Source of the DNA: an uncultured delta proteobacterium
Lineage (GTDB): Bacteria; Desulfobacterota; Binatia; UBA9968
DNA length: 64,000 bases
NCBI GenBank assembly: GCA_963737905.1
Contig: CAVTUQ010000002.1
Span: forward strand, 160,001-224,000
Direction: 5' to 3'
Part shown: in pieces, positions 22,215-31,447 of the stretch
Layout: each line of letters starts with the position of its first letter
Position numbering within the stretch: position 1 is the first letter of the stretch
Program-made: the position numbers and the translations under genes
Notes under the pieces: model-generated
What the model was told of the DNA's origin: nothing
What the model saw: the letters and a program-made list of their open reading frames with translations, nothing else
Database searches by the model: none

Positions 22215-22987
22215 TTATCCGGACTCCAGCATGGCTACTAACAGCATCAACCCAACACCCACCGCTATCGCAATGAGTTGTATGATAGATTTTAACAGAT
22301 CCGATTCCTTGTTAAGTTCGGGCACCAGATCAGAGCCCGCGATATAGATAAAGCCGCCGGCTGCTAAAGGGAGCATCAACGAAGAAAAATGCTCTACTCT
22401 GGAACTCACCAGGAGAGCGACAATGGTCCCCAAGATCGCAAACAGAGCTGATATGAAATTAAAAAAGATGGCTCTTGCTTTTGAGAAACCGGCGTACAGT
22501 AAGACGAAGAAGTTACCCAGTTCGTGTGGGATTTCATGAAAGATAACAGCAGTGGTAGTCGCGATGCCAACGGGAAGACTTACCAAATACGACGCTCCAA
22601 TAATCATCCCGTCGATAAAATTGTGGACGCCATCAGCGAGCAAATTCATATAGCCGACCGGACGAATGGGATTGTTGGCCTCCAATGTGTGCTGATGTCT
22701 CCAGAGCAGAAATTTCTCTAAAATAAAGAATGCGAATATGCCGGCCAAAAGATAAAGCGAGGCTTCGATATTTGCGTCAAATTTTGCAAACGCCTGTGGT
22801 AGTAAATGGATGAATGCATCGCCGAATAAACTGCCGACGGCGAGGCTGACCATAACAAAAATTATCCTTTTCAGCGTCTGTTCTCTGATTGAGATGAAGG
22901 CGATACCCACCAGTGAAAGAAGGCTCACCAAGACGACGCTGACCAGGCTATAAAACCATGCGACCGGCGTAGCTTCCGCCTTTTCAT
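22215..22987 (-). CDS. ZIP-family metal transporter
   Basis: LFGDAFIHLLP, DGVHNFIDG, HEIPHELG, GGFIYIAGSDLVPEL; start uncertain, abuts the upstream stop. Confidence 0.9.
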
Positions 22988-24432
22988 CCAGTGAACAGAT
23001 CGCGCACGACTTCTTTAACCGAATCGGTATAGGCCAGTCCGAGATTGGTCGCGGCGGGCGTGGGAACGGCGCGTTGAATCCGTCTCTCCCACAGCACAGT
23101 CCCATCATCAATCCGTATGAGCTTGAAATCAACGAAGACTCGCATGAACTTTTGCGACTCACCTTCCCAACGCCAGATCTCGCTGACGAAGACCAAGCCT
23201 GAAAGTTTTCCCTCACGAGCCATCCGAACAGCCCCATTCATGTCGGCGGGGAAAGCCGGAAAGCGCGGATCCATTTCTTCGGGAAGGGTAACTAGGTAAC
23301 CGTTTTGCTCCAACCCCTTGCGCAAGTCCTCACGCAACAAATCCATCACGCTCTGTCGGTAGTCGGAGGAAATCTTTCCTGCCATCTCTGCAAGGGAGCG
23401 TAGCGGATTTGTCGCCGGTAAAAGTAAAGGCAAGGCGGTGCTGTTCTTCACTTTTGCCAACCAAACTTGCTCTTTCTTAATGTCTTTCACTTGCGGCACC
23501 GGCGCAGAAGGCGTTCTCGTGGCGCAACTGGTAACCGCTCCGCCAACAAAAATCAGCATCAACAGCGCCGCACCTATTTTGGTTGGGACGCGGCTTAATC
23601 CGTAGGCTAGAAAGATCAGACAGCAGCCTAGGGTCACATCGGTGGGCCCCAAAGGAAGGTCCAAACGCACGGAGCTGTAGAAACCCAAAAAGGCCATAAT
23701 CACTCCCAGTATGGACGATAGTATCAAAAAAGAGCTCATCCGGCTCACCAAGGGCCGCGCCGCGAGCGCCGGCAGCACCAAGAACCCAAAAATCAACTGA
23801 GGCCCCGCCATGATCACTCCAAAAGCGATGATCAATCCGGCGAGAAGATAGAGCAACACATCCCAGATCACTTGACGCCCTTTCAAAAGAAACGCCAAAT
23901 CACGATCGAAAGAGGTCAAGAGAAATTCCCGGCGAAATATCAGCATCGCTACAAATACGACCCCAAAGACACCGATCAGTAGCCTCAGTTCGCCTTTGGA
24001 CAGCGCGATGACCTCACCCTTCAAGAGACTGAGAACTTCGATCTGGCCGGCTGGATTGAAGACTAAAAAGAGGATGGTCAATGCTCCGGCGAAAGCATAG
24101 GCAGCGGCCAGGCGACCTTCCGGGAAGCCTTTCCCGCGCTGTTCCAGATAGCCGAGTAACCCCATTCCTAAAAAAGTAAACACAAGCGAGCCGACCATAG
24201 CAATGCCGCGTTCACTCTCTCTAAGCTGTGGCAAGAGACCAGCCTGCTGCAACCAGAAAGTAAAAGAGACTCCGGCAGCGGCGATTTCCGGGAGCGTCAG
24301 TCCAAGGAATATCGTGCGCCGAAGGACCAGGTAAGAACCGATCAGCGGACACACTAACCCCATGATCATGGTACCTACGAGCGCAGGAAAAAGCAGATAA
24401 GAAGGATTCACAATTTCAAACAAAGTGCTCAT
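22984..24432 (-). CDS. ZnuB-type metal ABC permease fused to a C-terminal lipoprotein-like domain
   Basis: LVCPLIGSYLVLRR, SFDRDLA, LVLPALAA, LDLPLGPT, then AVTSC and ~180 soluble residues. Confidence 0.85.
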   Translation of the reverse strand: MSTLFEIVNPSYLLFPALVGTMIMGLVCPLIGSYLVLRRTIFLGLTLPEIAAAGVSFTFWLQQAGLLPQLRESERGIAMVGSLVFTFLGMGLLGYLEQRGKGFPEGRLAAAYAFAGALTILFLVFNPAGQIEVLSLLKGEVIALSKGELRLLIGVFGVVFVAMLIFRREFLLTSFDRDLAFLLKGRQVIWDVLLYLLAGLIIAFGVIMAGPQLIFGFLVLPALAARPLVSRMSSFLILSSILGVIMAFLGFYSSVRLDLPLGPTDVTLGCCLIFLAYGLSRVPTKIGAALLMLIFVGGAVTSCATRTPSAPVPQVKDIKKEQVWLAKVKNSTALPLLLPATNPLRSLAEMAGKISSDYRQSVMDLLREDLRKGLEQNGYLVTLPEEMDPRFPAFPADMNGAVRMAREGKLSGLVFVSEIWRWEGESQKFMRVFVDFKLIRIDDGTVLWERRIQRAVPTPAATNLGLAYTDSVKEVVRDLFTG

Positions 24433-25160
24433 GGCTGGTCACTCACTTTCTTCTCTTGCAACCAGATTTTTCCCTTGTCCACGCGAACGATTTTGTCGGC
24501 AACTCGCTGCACCATTTCAAGGTCGTGACTGGAAAAGAATAACGCCAACCCATTAACTCGGGTCAGGTGAATTAAAAGTTCCGCGATGGTCTTACGAGAT
24601 TCCTCATCCACACCGGACAGCGGCTCGTCTAGAATCATGATCTTCGGCTTGACCATCAAGGCGCGAGCAATAAGAATCCGCTGCTTTTGCCCGCCGGAGC
24701 ACGCAAAAAAAGATTTCGTCACAAGGTGGCGCATGCCGACTTGCTCTAAAACCTGGCTGGTTCTTTCCTTTTCTTCAGAGGGAAGGAATTGATACGAGCG
24801 CACGCGGCCGTAGGCTCCCATCTCCACGATCTCTCTCACGCTCAAGGGAAAGTGAGGATCGAGCGCGGCGCTTTGAGGCACATAGCCAAATTCCGATAAT
24901 GCGCAGTGTCGAGAAATAGAGCCGCCGAGAATCGGCAGAAGTCCGAGGATAGCGCGGAAAAGCGTCGTCTTGCCCGAACCGTTCGGACCGGCCACGCCAA
25001 TAAGGTCGCCTGGAGAAATCGTCACGTTTACGCCGTGAAGAACCGGCGTCGAATCGTAACCCAAGCTGACATCCTGAAGCGAAACCAGAGGGAGAGGCTC
25101 ATCTTTCGATACTCTCCCTCCGGCACTTTGTATTCCGTCGATATCTTGTCCCAACTTCAT
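24429..25160 (-). CDS. ZnuC-type metal ABC ATPase
   Basis: GPNGSGKT, GYVPQ, FPLSV, SGGQKQR, LDEP. Confidence 0.9.
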   Translation of the reverse strand: MKLGQDIDGIQSAGGRVSKDEPLPLVSLQDVSLGYDSTPVLHGVNVTISPGDLIGVAGPNGSGKTTLFRAILGLLPILGGSISRHCALSEFGYVPQSAALDPHFPLSVREIVEMGAYGRVRSYQFLPSEEKERTSQVLEQVGMRHLVTKSFFACSGGQKQRILIARALMVKPKIMILDEPLSGVDEESRKTIAELLIHLTRVNGLALFFSSHDLEMVQRVADKIVRVDKGKIWLQEKKVSDQP

Positions 25161-25164
25161 GCCT

Positions 25165-26095
25165 CTAACTGACCGACTGAACTAAGGTACGTACAGTATA
25201 ATCAATCCATTTAATATAGGTATCGGTTTCCGGCTGGTTTCCTCCGCCGCTGTAAAGACGCAGAACCTTGATGCCTGTTTCGGCAGAAATTTGCTCGGGG
25301 AACCGCGGATTCTGAGCACCATAAATTAGCAACTGGGCTTTATCTTGCTTGATCTGCTTGTACCAACTGCACTATATGATTTGGCGTCGGCTCAATTCCA
25401 GGCTTTAACTCAATGCTCCCTATCCGCTTCATGCCAAATCGATCAGCAAAATAAATCCATTCCGGATGATACTCGACATATTTGACCCCCCGTAGAGGAA
25501 CCGCCATTTTTTCCCAGCGCGCAATCCAGCTATCCAGCTCCGCCATATAGGCTTTTAGATTTTTATCAAAGGCTTGCTGATGCTGGGGATAATTACGCGA
25601 GAGGCCGTCGGCGATGTTCTTCGCGACGATTTTCGCTCTCACAGGGTCCAAGAGATAGTGAGGATTTCCCTTCGGGTGAAGGTCGCCTTCCGACCGGTCC
25701 ACGAGTGTGGGAGCCTCGAGCACCGGAACTCCCACGGAACAATCTATATAGCCTGGCCGCCCTAGAAGAATTTTAGGATTATTTGCCACCTCCAAAAGCG
25801 CTGGGAGCCAGGAATGTTCGTCATCCAAGCCAATCAAGACCAGCACGTCTGCTCGGTTTAGCCTGGGTACAAAGCTCGGTTTCATGGGAACACCGTGAGG
25901 ATCCTCGACTCCCGTCGCTAGACTATCTGCAGTCACCAACTCTTTACCGATCTGCCGGGTAATATCAGCCAAATCTGGCAACGTCGCCACGACACGGATT
26001 TGCTGCGCGAAGACTAAACCGGTTTGCAGCCAAACCAATGCGAGCGATATGAAAAACACCTTCCAGTTTTTACTTCTCAACAGTTTCATCTTCAT
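25165..26095 (-). CDS. Cluster A-I metal-binding protein (ZnuA/TroA-like); frameshift near 25355
   Basis: DPH, GDLHPKGNPHYLLDP, YH, IELKPGIEP; the C-terminus resumes in another frame to TAG at 25165. Confidence 0.88.
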
Positions 26096-26119: not shown

Positions 26120-27416
26120 CTAACGGGTGAGGAACCCGTGGGTATGAGCGCCGATCACAGTCGTCCATTGGAGAAAAAATTGATTGCCTTTCTCGGCTTT
26201 GTCCGCTTTAAAATTATTGCTCAAATAGCTGTATTGAAAACGCAGTCGGTTAAATTCGCTGACGTTCCAGGTCAAGTACGGCGAATAGCTGAGCGTCCTC
26301 TGGCCTGAGTTATCAACCACCGGAGCGTAATCGAAGAGAAATCCAGTGGCCCAATTCTTGTTCAACTTGAGATCGACGTAACTGTAGCCGCCATAGGATT
26401 GTTGGCGCTTACCCACAGTGCGCGTTTCCAAAATACTCGGGTCATCCTCATTTGGAACCTCGATGTCAAACGGGAAAGCGCTCGCTGTTGGCATAGAATT
26501 CACTCCCCCACGTCAAACCCTGATAAACCGAGCTGCCGAGCGGTTGGTAACGATAAGTCAGATCAACACCGTTGAGCATCCGAGCGCCGCCAGAGGCATC
26601 ACCTGCGAGTCGCACCGAAGGCGTGTAGGCAAGGCTCGTACCTAATTCAATACTATGATTATCCGTGAGATCAAAATAAGTATTGAGCCTTCCGAGATAA
26701 GTAAACTGACTCCCGGACCGCAGCACTGTATTGTCGATTCGATCGTTGCCCTCTCCCATCTTGTTCATTGCGCCGAATGTCGCTCTCATGAAAAAAGGCG
26801 TCGGAAAAAGATAATACAATTCCGCCCCGTCCGCCTGCGTTTCGCCTCCCACCATCCGCTCGATAGAAAGCGGCTCGTTAACAAAAGGCAGCTCATGCTC
26901 ATGGTACTTGGGAAAGCGCCCGAAATCGGCCAAGAAACGACCTCCTTTGGCCGTCAGGTTATACGGGAGAGAAGTGGTGATCGCCGCGGCTTCATCTATC
27001 TCTACGCCATCCTTTGTACCGTTGATAAAACTATACATCCTCGCAAACGGATCTATTGAAGCCGCAATGCCGAACTCAGCACTGCGAAAATCAAAAAGGC
27101 CTCCGGCTGTGCCGCGCTTTTGGACATTGGCATCGAGCACAAGACCCATGGAGGGATTGAGCGCGCTGGGCGCGCTCTGAACCGCCTGGACCGATTTTTC
27201 CACCTGGCCCAGCCTAGCGGAGCTGGAAGATTTTTCCTTTTCCAACTGGTCAATTCGATCCAAAGCGTTCTTCAATTGATTCTGCATTTCCCCCAGTTGT
27301 TTCTTAAGTGCCTGAGTCGCATCTTCCTGTGACAGTCCCACTCTCGGAAACAAGATCACCAAGCATAATACAAATAACGCGGATGTGGTTTGCAATCTAG
27401 TTTGACATAAATCCAT
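26120..27416 (-). CDS. Outer-membrane beta-barrel of the type associated with metal ABC operons; frameshift near 26475
   Basis: Signal peptide, coiled coil, ASIDPF, HEHELPF, EFNRLRFQY, C-terminal IGAHTHGF. Confidence 0.8.
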
Positions 27417-27498
27417 AAATCCACCCCCTACAAAAACAGGTATCTACCCCTCCCAACCAGGGAAGGGAAAATTAATAAATTTACGCGTGAAGGAAGAA

Positions 27499-27801
27499 TT
27501 ACAGAGGGAGTGAAGATGGAGGCGCGCGAACCGCGGGAGACTTTATTGAAAGCGCACCAAAAACTTGAGCTTCATGAGTCGTAATGGAGAAAATCTGAAG
27601 AGAGGGACTGTGCTCAGCTAGCGCTGAAGTTAATCCTGCGTGGATTCGCGTTCCATGATAGCAGCTACATTCATTGCCGACTCGTGCGGTCGAATTGAAA
27701 AAATGGAGGTGTAAAGGCAGAAAGAAAACAAAGAACAGGACTATTGCCGCGACGACACGGCGAGTGGTTGGACCCTTCTCCTTGAAAAATCGAAAGGACA
27801 C
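27499..27801 (-). CDS. RAPP-motif leader peptide 1 (DUF2946/CruR/CutF-like), 100 aa
   Basis: GTG start, TM, LPLHLH, ECSCYHG, C-terminal RAPP; directly upstream of the metal uptake operon. Confidence 0.8.
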   Translation of the reverse strand: MSFRFFKEKGPTTRRVVAAIVLFFVFFLPLHLHFFNSTARVGNECSCYHGTRIHAGLTSALAEHSPSLQIFSITTHEAQVFGALSIKSPAVRAPPSSLPL

Positions 27802-27808
27802 GGTCCCA

Positions 27809-27837
27809 AGGCTAGTCAAGCGGTAGCGGGTTGTCAA
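27809..27837 (-). promoter_or_regulatory. Sigma70 promoter (leaderless) of leader peptide 1
   Basis: TTGACA(27837-27832)-N17-TAGCCT(27814-27809)-N7-GTG. Confidence 0.7.
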
Positions 27838-27886
27838 GGAAATAAGAGATTCTGCAGCACCGAGATTCGGCCTAACCCCGGCCGGT

Positions 27887-27949
27887 CGACAATCATTTTC
27901 ACATCACTCATCAGATAGCAGGTTTGTCGGATTGCGAATTGTTTGCAAT
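27887..27949. promoter_or_regulatory. Two Fur/Zur-family-like boxes
   Basis: TGAAAATGATTGTCG (minus strand, 27901-27887) and the imperfect 9-1-9 palindrome ATTGCGAAT-T-GTTTGCAAT (27931-27949). Confidence 0.5.
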
Positions 27950-27963
27950 TAACCGGCGGCCAT

Positions 27964-28577
27964 TCAGCTTCCGGGTTTTCTCGACTCCAGTTGTGCAAAT
28001 ACCTCTTTCATGACCGTCTCGGCTACGAAGATGTTCGCTTGGCCGGTTAGCACGATGCCGTAAAGCGGAACGGGCCGCGAGGGACGGTTGACCTGCCAGA
28101 GTATCGCGCTCGTTTTGGGATCGACCATGATCACGTCTAAAGCGACGATCACGCCGTCGGCTTTCATTCCCCTCTCACTCGGCGTCGGTTCCCAGCGCCG
28201 CACTTCGATGTACAGGGCAGCCGCGTCAAGCCGCGCCTGTTCCACAATTTGCGCCGCCATCTGCGGGCTAGTCGGCACACGATCTTTGGTTGACAGCTTT
28301 ACAATGCTGGGTTCAACGACGTCGAAACGCTTCGCCGCGAGCTGGGCACGAGCCTGCTGGGCGAGCAGATCTTCGATCGTTCTCGACGGTAGACCCAGGA
28401 GTTCGCTCTCTGTTGCAGTGGGGCGCGTCTCGGCCGCGCCAAGCCGATAGGGCGGCAGAACCACGATCCGGCTAACATTTTGGGGAAGTCGAGTGACGAC
28501 TATTTGCGTGCACCCAACGCTCCGAGCAACAAGCTGAGAAGTCCGATTCGACCGATCAACGTTTTTTGTTTGCTCAT
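27964..28577 (-). CDS. Lipoprotein (DUF799-like fold); frameshift in the lipobox
   Basis: ATG 28577 gives MSKQKTLIGRIGLLSLLLGALG; adding one G near 28513 gives LG-CTQ in frame with IVVLPP...ILWQ. Confidence 0.65.
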
Positions 28578-28629
28578 ATTGGTATTCTCTTTGTCCATTT
28601 GCCCGGGAACTTCTACCTCCACGCGCCAA

Positions 28630-30822: not shown

Positions 30823-31113
30823 CTAGAGAATAGGAGGTGCGCGGGCTAATTCAGACTCGATGGTAACTTGAACAGGAGCTTCCGTTATGCGGACGATTAA
30901 GAACGACACCCCAGCGGAAGGACCGAGAATAGCAGCTGCTGGAGCCAAGTCCATCTGAACGCGACCGCCGTAACAGCAGCAAGCGCAGTCCTCGCTCACC
31001 TTTGGGTTAGCGGGAAAATGAATATGAAGAGGCAGGAAGAAGACGAACAACAAGATCGCCGCGCTTAAAAGACGGCTGACCTTGTGCGACTTCTTTAGGC
31101 AGAGAATAAACAC
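30823..31113 (-). CDS. RAPP-motif leader peptide 2, 96 aa
   Basis: GTG start, TM, LPLHIH, DCACCCYGG, C-terminal RAPP; paralog of 27499-27801. Confidence 0.75.
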   Translation of the reverse strand: MFILCLKKSHKVSRLLSAAILLFVFFLPLHIHFPANPKVSEDCACCCYGGRVQMDLAPAAAILGPSAGVSFLIVRITEAPVQVTIESELARAPPIL

Positions 31114-31120
31114 GCCCTTG

Positions 31121-31149
31121 AACCTAAACAATGCGTTCTTCGATGTCAA
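31121..31149 (-). promoter_or_regulatory. Sigma70 promoter (leaderless) of leader peptide 2
   Basis: TTGACA(31149-31144)-N17-TAGGTT(31126-31121)-N7-GTG. Confidence 0.7.
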
Positions 31150-31447
31150 TGAAAAAACCAAAACGATCGGCCGACGCATTCACTGGCGGCGTTTATTGCG
31201 AAGGCAGCTCAAAATCACGTTTTGGCGGGGGCTCAATATCGTCCTGGTCCCTCGCCATGAAATCTGAGAAACAGAGATGCTCGGTAGTGAAATGAGCCGC
31301 TTTATCGGCAGATACCTGGACTGGAGCCAAGTCCCATTTTCGGCAACCGAGTGCCATGGGAGGCCGTACCACGGATTACATTCTTTAGGAACGTGCGCCC
31401 TCGCCGTGACGGGATGAAAGGGAAGCAAAGTCGAGGCAGCGGCACAG

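Follow-up and report, generated by a model that had tools for sequence, protein, structure and literature searches.

How might a short open reading frame (ORF) lying just ahead of a set of metal-uptake genes decide whether the first of those genes is translated? This question is raised by the minus strand of a 64,000-nt stretch of DNA, here called the window (positions 160,001 to 224,000 of contig CAVTUQ010000002.1, assembly GCA_963737905.1), from an uncultured member of the Binatia, in which a leader ORF ending in an Arg-Ala-Pro-Pro (RAPP) motif precedes a gene for a porin-like outer-membrane protein and, after it, genes for a ZnuABC-type transporter and a ZIP transporter. A first-pass annotation of the sequence had proposed that an anti-Shine-Dalgarno (anti-SD) segment just past the RAPP codons is masked by a ribosome stalled there, so that uptake is on, and that release of the arrest, for example on metal binding, lets the Shine-Dalgarno (SD) region of the porin gene be sequestered. 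Having followed up this proposal by computation, we find that an SD-unmasking switch driven by a stalling peptide is the best explanation of the locus, and we give it about an even chance of being correct.

We begin with the peptide. The leader ORF is open from a TTG codon, but its true start is likely GTG 27801, which by reading gives a peptide of 100 residues; its database relatives are mostly 94–100 residues long. The N terminus reads as a basic stretch followed by the hydrophobic segment VVAAIVLFFVFFLPL, which, judged by eye, is likely an export signal or membrane anchor. Eleven residues separate the HxH motif at the end of this segment from the CxC motif, and a further 44 residues lead from C59 to R104 of RAPP, after which the C terminus reads V-R-A-P-P-S-S-L-P-L-stop (stop codon at 27501-27499). 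For comparison, a pattern search of related loci gave 75 leader ORFs, of which we kept 52 that had a downstream porin homologue (BLASTP E < 1e-3 to the window porin) and an intergenic region of 60–120 nt, one start being fixed by hand; the other 23 were contig ends, had other genes downstream or mis-called starts, or were duplicates. In later tests n = 51, because the locus from an unpublished genome was removed. As shown by the alignments, R-x-P-P, HxH and CxC are invariant in 13/13 aligned leader peptides, and the spacing from CxC to RAPP is held at 43–45 residues across alignment A2, one row of which comes from an unpublished genome (G012). The motif itself is RAPP in 34 of the 52 leaders, RGPP in 17 and RSPP in 1; RAPP and RGPP are reported as the most robust arrest cores in PMC12992588. 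Following the assignment of the RAPP stall state to the P and A sites in PMC10951233, a stalled ribosome would be expected to have CCU (27522-27520) as its P-site codon and CCA (27519-27517) as its A-site codon. The tail that follows the two prolines is five codons long at 41/51 loci, is CU-rich, and usually ends in Ser-Leu, encoded UCY CUN.

We next considered what these last codons do as RNA. Read directly, the coordinates and both pairings of the first-pass annotation were as it had given them. UUCACUCCCU begins at the third nucleotide past the last Pro codon and can form 10 antiparallel pairs, 2 of them G-U, with AGGGGGUGGA in the SD region of the porin gene, whose ATG at 27416 lies seven nt past the G-run of the SD. 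Between the two, in a leader-porin intergenic region of 82 nt, stands a central hairpin of 8 pairs (1 G-U) with a 5-nt loop, the arms of which mimic an anti-SD and an SD. In the unconstrained fold of 27540-27400 (minus strand), the minimum-free-energy (MFE) and centroid structures were identical and contained both the predicted helix between tail and SD and the hairpin nested within it. The fold also adds 5 bp, in which UCCAU inside the two Pro codons pairs with AUGGA at the porin start, and the SD, the spacer and the start codon are therefore all paired with the last 16 nt of the leader. The energy of this fold is -41.3 kcal/mol (z = -2.09), which 4 of 200 dinucleotide shuffles equalled. No Rfam family matched at E ≤ 1 within 27300-27950, and a promoter and terminator scan found nothing in the leader-porin intergenic region, the central hairpin not being terminator-like. 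Two RNA-library runs each held two 151-nt pieces of a 90–95% relative over 27150-27425, too few to show transcription or transcript ends.

Related loci keep this pairing, as the first-pass annotation had expected of orthologs. A stretch of the SD (≥ 5 nt) pairs with the 3' end of the leader in the MFE folds of 45/52 loci. With +1 set at 27522, the first nucleotide of the P-site codon CCU, the best duplex between the tail and the translation initiation region (TIR) of the porin gene starts at -5 to +9 in 51/51 loci, and 71% of its 5'-arm nucleotides lie at or before +12 and 82% at or before +15. When a 24-nt window was slid along the 51 leaders, complementarity to the porin TIR peaked on the RAPP and tail codons (mean -18.7 kcal/mol), compared with about -11 kcal/mol over the 180 nt upstream, in the body of the leader ORF; a second dip starts at the 5' arm of the hairpin. 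The match is specific to each locus: native pairs of tail and TIR averaged -18.3 kcal/mol compared with -15.7 kcal/mol for mismatched loci, a value that 0/5000 permutations reached, and with nine cluster representatives the values were -16.4 and -13.9 kcal/mol, 7/5000 permutations being as low. It is also seen at the level of codon choice. Recoding the tail with synonymous codons drawn from porin-gene usage weakened the duplex (mean z -1.42 over 51 loci), the native tail falling in the best 5% at 19/51 loci and in the better half at 47/51; for the window itself z was -2.04, with 4% of its recodings as good. Further, 256 ordinary co-directional junctions of the window genome had a mean duplex energy of -10.1 kcal/mol (standard deviation 3.7), and only 1/256 reached the -20.8 kcal/mol of the window, and 10/256 the family mean.

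Covariation points in the same direction. RNAalifold applied to the 8 closest leaders returned the nested structure at -19.55 kcal/mol, with 8 pairs between tail and SD and 11 in the hairpin, and one of the former, C-G in the window and U-A in six relatives, is compensatory and fits the GGGGG SD of the window. A covariance model built from these 8 leaders and searched against 70 sources at E ≤ 0.01 gave 45 matches, among them the 8 seeds themselves, a region present in duplicate and a partial match on the reverse strand. In the resulting alignment the helix between tail and SD was 88.3% paired, with double changes in 7/8 pairs, and the intervening hairpin, which the first-pass annotation had also named, was 90.3% paired, with double changes in 11/11. 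All five of five whole-structure measures lay above 500/500 shuffles, and sliding the partners by 1–3 columns lowered the pairing from 85.6% to 50–71% and the covariation score from 0.41 to 0.08–0.13. Several points count on the other side: the covariance alignment was fitted to the structure and its loci are kin; with all 51 leaders aligned by MAFFT, RNAalifold returned no consensus structure; on 13 leaders it gave a weak and different one, in which the PP codons pair with the SD and the tail pairs with the 3' arm of the hairpin; and the helix keeps to no single register, 16 of them occurring in 51 loci. Overall, the results indicate that the pairing is real and selected.

Would a ribosome arrested at RAPP then free the SD? 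Within a ribosome, mRNA is kept unpaired as far as about +11 to +13, and protection extends to about +15 or +16. Inside this range, in the window, fall the partners of the AUG (+3 to +7) and of the spacer (+9 to +11), and to that extent the anti-SD does sit under the stalled ribosome, as had been claimed; but the SD core AGGGGGU has its partners at +12 to +18, at the leading edge of the ribosome and at or beyond the channel entrance. Folding with and without the footprint, a check suggested in the first-pass annotation, likewise gave a divided answer. The cost of opening the SD core of the window fell from 11.0 kcal/mol in the free RNA to 7.8 kcal/mol with a stalled ribosome, and to 5.4 kcal/mol with a terminating one, but the SD remained paired: in the fold of 27537-27399 held open to +12 or +15, GGGGG re-pairs with CUUCC (27493-27489) after the stop codon, and the AUG region pairs with UCUGUAA across it. 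Under the mask the five G's of the core have an unpaired probability of at most 0.06, and the flanking A and U are open.

The family behaves similarly. The median opening cost is 11.2 kcal/mol free, 7.1 with the +12 mask, 5.9 with the +15 mask and 5.7 with a terminating ribosome, and a residual 6–8 kcal/mol persists across the family in the stalled state. Much of the sequestration is compositional: with a dinucleotide-shuffled upstream leader the cost is still 8.3 kcal/mol. The SD-core partners all lie beyond +12 in 12/51 loci, and in 8/51 the core pairs mainly elsewhere than with the leader. These figures, together with the position of the core partners and the re-pairing in the window, weigh against full unmasking by the arrested ribosome. 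On the other hand, the native opening cost exceeds the shuffled-leader cost in 41/51 loci, and the leader therefore closes the SD beyond what composition alone would do; masking of the arrest site takes the cost to the shuffled baseline or under it, and the effect amounts to a shift of about 3–5 kcal/mol rather than an all-or-none switch. The core partners lie wholly at or before +12 in 21 loci and straddle it in 10, and the AUG is paired with nucleotides at or before +12 in 24/51. In effect the leader carries a tandem pair of anti-SD elements, one in the CCN CCN Pro codons and one in the tail, and lineages differ in which of the two they lean on.

Taken together, we propose the following course of events. 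The leader ORF would encode a small exported or membrane-anchored metal sensor carrying HxH, CxC and RAPP. Its last ~20 nt, the Pro-Pro codons and the CU-rich tail of five codons, would form the 5' arm of a long-range helix whose 3' arm is the porin SD, spacer and AUG, with the conserved hairpin between them keeping the arms together. An arrested ribosome would cover the 5' half of the arm and cut the cost of opening the TIR by ~3–5 kcal/mol, so that the porin is made, and the ZnuABC and ZIP genes would be expressed along with it by coupling or polarity. Binding of metal to the nascent chain at the tunnel exit would release the arrest, whereupon the ribosome would complete the five tail codons and depart, the helix would re-form and initiation would drop; the untranslated, pyrimidine-rich and G-poor RNA may then also let in Rho. 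That the ribosome arrests, which metal is sensed, that metal frees the arrest and how large the effect is are matters that we infer, the zinc-type metal because of the HxH and CxC motifs and the operon.

The hairpin between the arms could have a role of its own, whether as a decoy, as a standby site, as an enhancer bound by S1 or as a hairpin at which RNA polymerase pauses. In most of loci L008–L092 its arms are an anti-SD (CCCUCCC) and an SD mimic (GGGAGGG), and in most loci it stands 10–17 nt ahead of the true SD and is followed by the conserved U-rich spacer. At 27446 and 27456, small insertions are present in related soil strains.

We also weighed Rho-dependent attenuation of the CruR type as the main output. 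Here, the arrested ribosome would shield a pyrimidine-rich, G-poor Rho-loading tract that extends from the Pro codons on, and after release Rho would terminate transcription ahead of or within the porin gene; the SD helix would be secondary, or would only help to keep the RNA untranslated. Composition is in keeping with this: over the stretch that begins with the Pro codons and runs to 35 nt beyond the stop codon, the mean C content is 0.34 and the mean G content 0.14 (0.05 in the window), and C/G exceeds 2 in 34/51 loci compared with 1.12 in the body of the leader ORF. The genome encodes Rho (RNA-binding domain, 123 bits), the synonymous-codon bias of the tail would also arise from avoidance of G, and CruR, the closest functional analogue in having RAPP, metal uptake and an outer-membrane transporter, acts via Rho (PMC9426467). 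However, the intergenic region has only 82 nt compared with 162 nt in Bordetella pertussis, and the hairpin within it is stable and conserved; the pairing, too, covaries and is specific to each locus, which composition alone leaves unexplained. We hold it unlikely that the main output is Rho attenuation. Neither mechanism excludes the other, and they may act together, and loss of porin translation would itself expose the RNA to Rho.

The helix could also serve plain translational coupling or damping, holding porin initiation low until any ribosome that reaches the leader stop codon opens it, while the RAPP arrest serves elsewhere, for example in membrane targeting of the mRNA or in pacing. The part of the tail that pairs with the SD ends at the stop, and a ribosome in termination is no worse at opening the SD than one that has stalled (median 5.7 compared with 7.1–5.9 kcal/mol); the 12/51 loci whose core partners all lie beyond +12 also suit such an arrangement. 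Coupling nevertheless fails to explain the invariant R-x-P-P and its spacing of 43–45 residues from CxC, and two further points tell against it: the peak of complementarity covers the RAPP codons themselves, and the AUG pairs with nucleotides at or before +12 in 24/51 loci. Moreover, with coupling alone, release of the arrest would switch an uptake operon on with metal, which would be the wrong sign. We regard this explanation as quite improbable. That the match has no function and is a by-product of CCN CCN Pro codons, a CU-rich tail and a G-rich SD would accord with the 8.3 kcal/mol of shuffled leaders, the modest z of the window fold and the missing RNAalifold consensus in broad alignments, but is countered by synonymous recoding, by permutation across loci, by the number of pairs that covary, by where complementarity peaks and by the genome background, and is very improbable indeed.

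SD unmasking by an arrested ribosome has published precedents. The analogy to SecM and CutF drawn in the first-pass annotation is apt, since in the published account of CutF a stem-loop that shields the SD ahead of cutO in Rhodobacter capsulatus melts when the ribosome stalls (PMC9973294; preprint 10.1101/2025.02.05.636593). The switch proposed here would share with CutF a small metal-sensing leader exported by Sec, a C-terminal proline stall motif and stall-driven unmasking of an SD in cis. CutF, however, is a DUF2946 member with CxxxC and a proline-rich (PPP) motif tied to elongation factor P. Its stall is lengthened by copper and serves to switch on a detoxifying oxidase, whereas the genes controlled here would be those of an uptake operon for porin, ZnuABC and ZIP; the CutF stem-loop is said to lie between genes, whereas here the 5' arm of the helix is made of the leader's own Pro codons and tail; and the leader peptide here has no Pfam match and carries HxH, CxC and RAPP or RGPP.

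CruR (Bp2923), which precedes bfrG in B. pertussis (PMC9426467), is closer in other respects: it has RAPP a few residues from the C terminus and a conserved 45 residues from CXXC to RAPP (44 from CxC here), and it stands first in an operon that serves uptake through an outer-membrane protein. The logic proposed for it, in which the metal-free state is arrested and on and metal brings release and the off state, is the likely logic for the uptake operon here. CruR differs in being a copper sensor of the DUF2946 family with CXXC, in having as output termination by Rho within 162 nt of intergenic DNA, the text available describing no helix that sequesters an SD, and in serving a TonB-dependent transporter rather than a porin. 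In SecM-secA, MifM-yidC2 and VemP-secDF2, too, arrest near the C terminus of an exported leader exposes a downstream SD (PMC9973294, PMC10951233), and SecM's RAG/P motif stalls by the same mechanism at the peptidyl transferase centre as RAPP (PMC10951233). SecM, MifM and VemP monitor protein export and control genes of the secretion machinery, and their sequences are unrelated to the leader here. An R-A/G-P-P motif near the C terminus of small secreted or membrane proteins is likewise found in ApdA, ApdP and other arrest peptides (PMC10951233, PMC12992588; see also PMC7897499).

To place the leader among these families, we searched it for their signatures. Neither of the two window leader peptides (the second is described below) matched Pfam DUF2946 (PF11162), even at E ≤ 10, nor did any of the 13 aligned family members (0/13, same threshold), and no protein in the whole genome of the window scored above the PF11162 cut-off. 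The leader family also lacks the CXXC of CruR and the CxxxC of CutF, its invariant motif being C-x-C with an invariant H-x-H before it. It does have the DUF2946-like traits of a C-terminal RAPP 5 residues from the end, the spacing to a Cys motif, an N-terminal export signal (by reading) and a position at the head of a metal operon. Look-alikes in the ESM Atlas were unnamed clusters and a weak DUF2607 lead. RAPP/RGPP upstream ORFs are reported ahead of diverse metal-homeostasis genes in many phyla (PMC12992588); section 13 of that paper groups TonB receptors, YcnI, PCuAC, PepSY and DsbA/thioredoxin and does not name ZnuABC, ZIP or porin, and its figures and supplements may list more. In the text available of the CutF paper (PMC9973294), 'zinc' and 'ZnuA' occur 0 times and no ZnuABC, ZIP or porin context is named. 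A literature search for a zinc-linked RAPP leader found nothing relevant among the papers listed, with the proviso that supplementary tables could list the leader family. In a Caulobacter study, DUF2946 genes that adjoin czr efflux genes are reported among those affected by zur (PMC4176598).

The window holds a paralogous leader, 34% identical to the first, 3.3 kb upstream. The MFE fold joins the Pro codons of this second leader, ACCUCC (30838-30833), to GGAGGU (30621-30616), the SD of an NlpC/P60 peptidase gene, across a strongly structured spacer of 210 nt (z = -3.57; 0/200 shuffles as good). A point against the proposed switch is that, in this NlpC/P60-linked sub-type, pairing of the PP codons with the SD was found in only 1/4 loci. 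Locus L008 of a related genome also has two leader copies, ~1.1 kb apart.

The positions of these elements and of the downstream genes are collected in Table 1.

Table 1. Elements of the leader-porin locus and neighbouring genes, in window coordinates
Feature	Position	Strand	Remarks
Leader ORF (putative sensor/arrest peptide)	27837..27499	minus	112 aa counted from TTG 27837
H43-x-H45 codons (LPLHxH)	27703..27711	minus	at end of hydrophobic segment; invariant in family (alignments A1, A2)
C57-x-C59 codons (ECSC)	27661..27669	minus	invariant in family (alignments A1, A2)
RAPP codons CGC GCG CCU CCA	27517..27528	minus	sequence read directly
Anti-TIR arm	27505..27520	minus	UCCAU 27520-27516 pairs AUGGA 27416-27412; UUCACUCCCU 27514-27505 pairs AGGGGGUGGA
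Second CU tract across/after stop, UCUGUAAUUCUUCCUUC	27489..27505	minus	predicted backup partner of SD and AUG under footprint mask; G-poor, like a Rho-utilization (rut) site
Central hairpin CCCUUCCC-UGGUU-GGGAGGGG	27447..27467	minus	arms 27467-27460 and 27454-27447
U-rich spacer from hairpin to SD, UAGAUACCUGUUUUUGU	27430..27446	minus	consensus ...TTTGTnTT... in alignment A3
Porin SD region AGGGGGUGGA	27420..27429	minus	core AGGGGGU, 27429-27423
Porin-like outer-membrane protein gene	26120..27416	minus	ATG 27416-27414; heads operon
Operon remainder after porin (ZnuA-type to ZIP)	22215..26095	minus	
ZnuA-type binding protein	25340-26095	minus	Pfam
ABC ATPase	24429-25160	minus	Pfam
ABC-3 permease	22984-24432	minus	Pfam
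ZIP transporter	22215-23237	minus	Pfam
Paralogous leader ORF ending ARAPPIL-stop	30823..31179	minus	34% identical; 3.3 kb upstream of main leader

The genes that follow the porin form, together with it, what we take, by the families they belong to, to be a divalent-metal uptake set of zinc type. ZnuA comes next after the porin in 7/9 related loci examined, the ORF chosen in the other two having no Pfam match. In the assembly the porin gene of the window is broken into two overlapping frames, 26466-27416 (316 aa) and 26120-26503 (127 aa), with the break near 26471, whereas relatives have open frames of mostly 417–505 aa and intact ORFs of 415–431 aa. Contigs from 95–99% similar soil strains lack one base at 26471/26472 (X1, depth 6.41/6.41; X2, 9.77 + 2.2 of 12), and the frameshift is therefore an assembly error or strain-specific. 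The porin gene matched no Pfam family, NCBIfam and Pfam returning only coiled-coil noise, and a sequence search of the PDB with it found nothing significant. An AlphaFold2 model of an intact relative, built from an alignment of 34 sequences and of moderate confidence (pLDDT, the predicted local distance difference test, 61.7), shows a signal helix, a coiled coil and ~17 strands, and its Foldseek matches are the 16–18-stranded porins OmpT, OmpM1, AlgE, Omp32 and OprP (E 6e-9 to 1e-6).

The porin family (loci L008–L089; 26120-26140 in the window) ends in a conserved G-[AS]-H-T-H-G-F-x-x-R, and a 30%-identical porin sub-family ends in G-[AS]-H-P-A-H-Q-Y; judging from sequence, metal may be bound by this second HxH-type motif of the operon. 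Like the porin gene, that of the ZnuA-type protein looks broken (25165-26095), its 251 aa covering Pfam positions 1–202 of 263 and being followed by a 55-aa ORF in another frame (25165-25332); relatives have frames of 311–325 aa with the full domain. The ABC-3 permease bears an extra C-terminal ~200 residues (22984-23600) without a Pfam match, and the idea of a domain shared by this extension and the ORF at 27964-28629 was dropped (BLASTP E = 17).

How far does the leader family reach? It is present in 68/123 genomes of the window's order (64/89 in f1, 3/5 in f2 and 0/28 in f3; these order-level tallies include four unpublished genomes). When the phylum was sampled evenly, 3/301 genomes had it, the window's own among them, the other two matches being weak and containing stop codons. 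A profile search of a large protein collection returned 567 proteins at E ≤ 0.001 among 1575 candidates, and the putative sensor family comprises at least 567 protein clusters, concentrated in one order among the genomes sampled. Of the matches listed (120), all are unnamed or 'hypothetical' and without a Pfam domain. A peptide-pattern search for further loci gave 26, and 9/9 of those checked were from genomes already in the set; it hence provides no out-of-sample test. The related genomes are labelled mostly 'Candidatus Binatia bacterium' or 'Deltaproteobacteria bacterium'. Within one family of the reference taxonomy the submitters' labels range over Binatia, Deltaproteobacteria, Acidiferrales, Eisenbacteria, Udaeobacter and Chloroflexota, and such labels are therefore unfit for inferring a wide phyletic spread of the leader family.

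To date, metal-sensing arrest peptides comprise two experimental cases, CruR and CutF, both of which sense copper and belong to DUF2946. A bolder proposal, which we advance tentatively and think somewhat more likely to fail than to hold, is that the leaders are an unrecognised family of nascent-chain metal sensors: zinc, or a different divalent metal, would bind to their Cys2His2-like site, HxH...CxC, as it emerges from the ribosome tunnel, and they would drive translation of porin-ZnuABC-ZIP operons with the arrest codons and tail as anti-SD, a hybrid of CruR logic, in which metal relieves arrest, and CutF/SecM output, with two tandem anti-SDs and tuning by an SD-mimic hairpin. The RNA design is compact and testable, the arrest codons themselves being part of the anti-SD, and SD unmasking and Rho attenuation, both published modes of output, would be linked in one 120-nt leader. 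For annotators, the rule would be HxH, CxC, 44 residues, R[A/G]PP, 5 codons, stop, ~80–110 nt and a strong SD. Overall, the locus suggests that the principle of the arrest sensor reaches a family not recognised by Pfam, an uptake operon of zinc type and little-studied soil bacteria.

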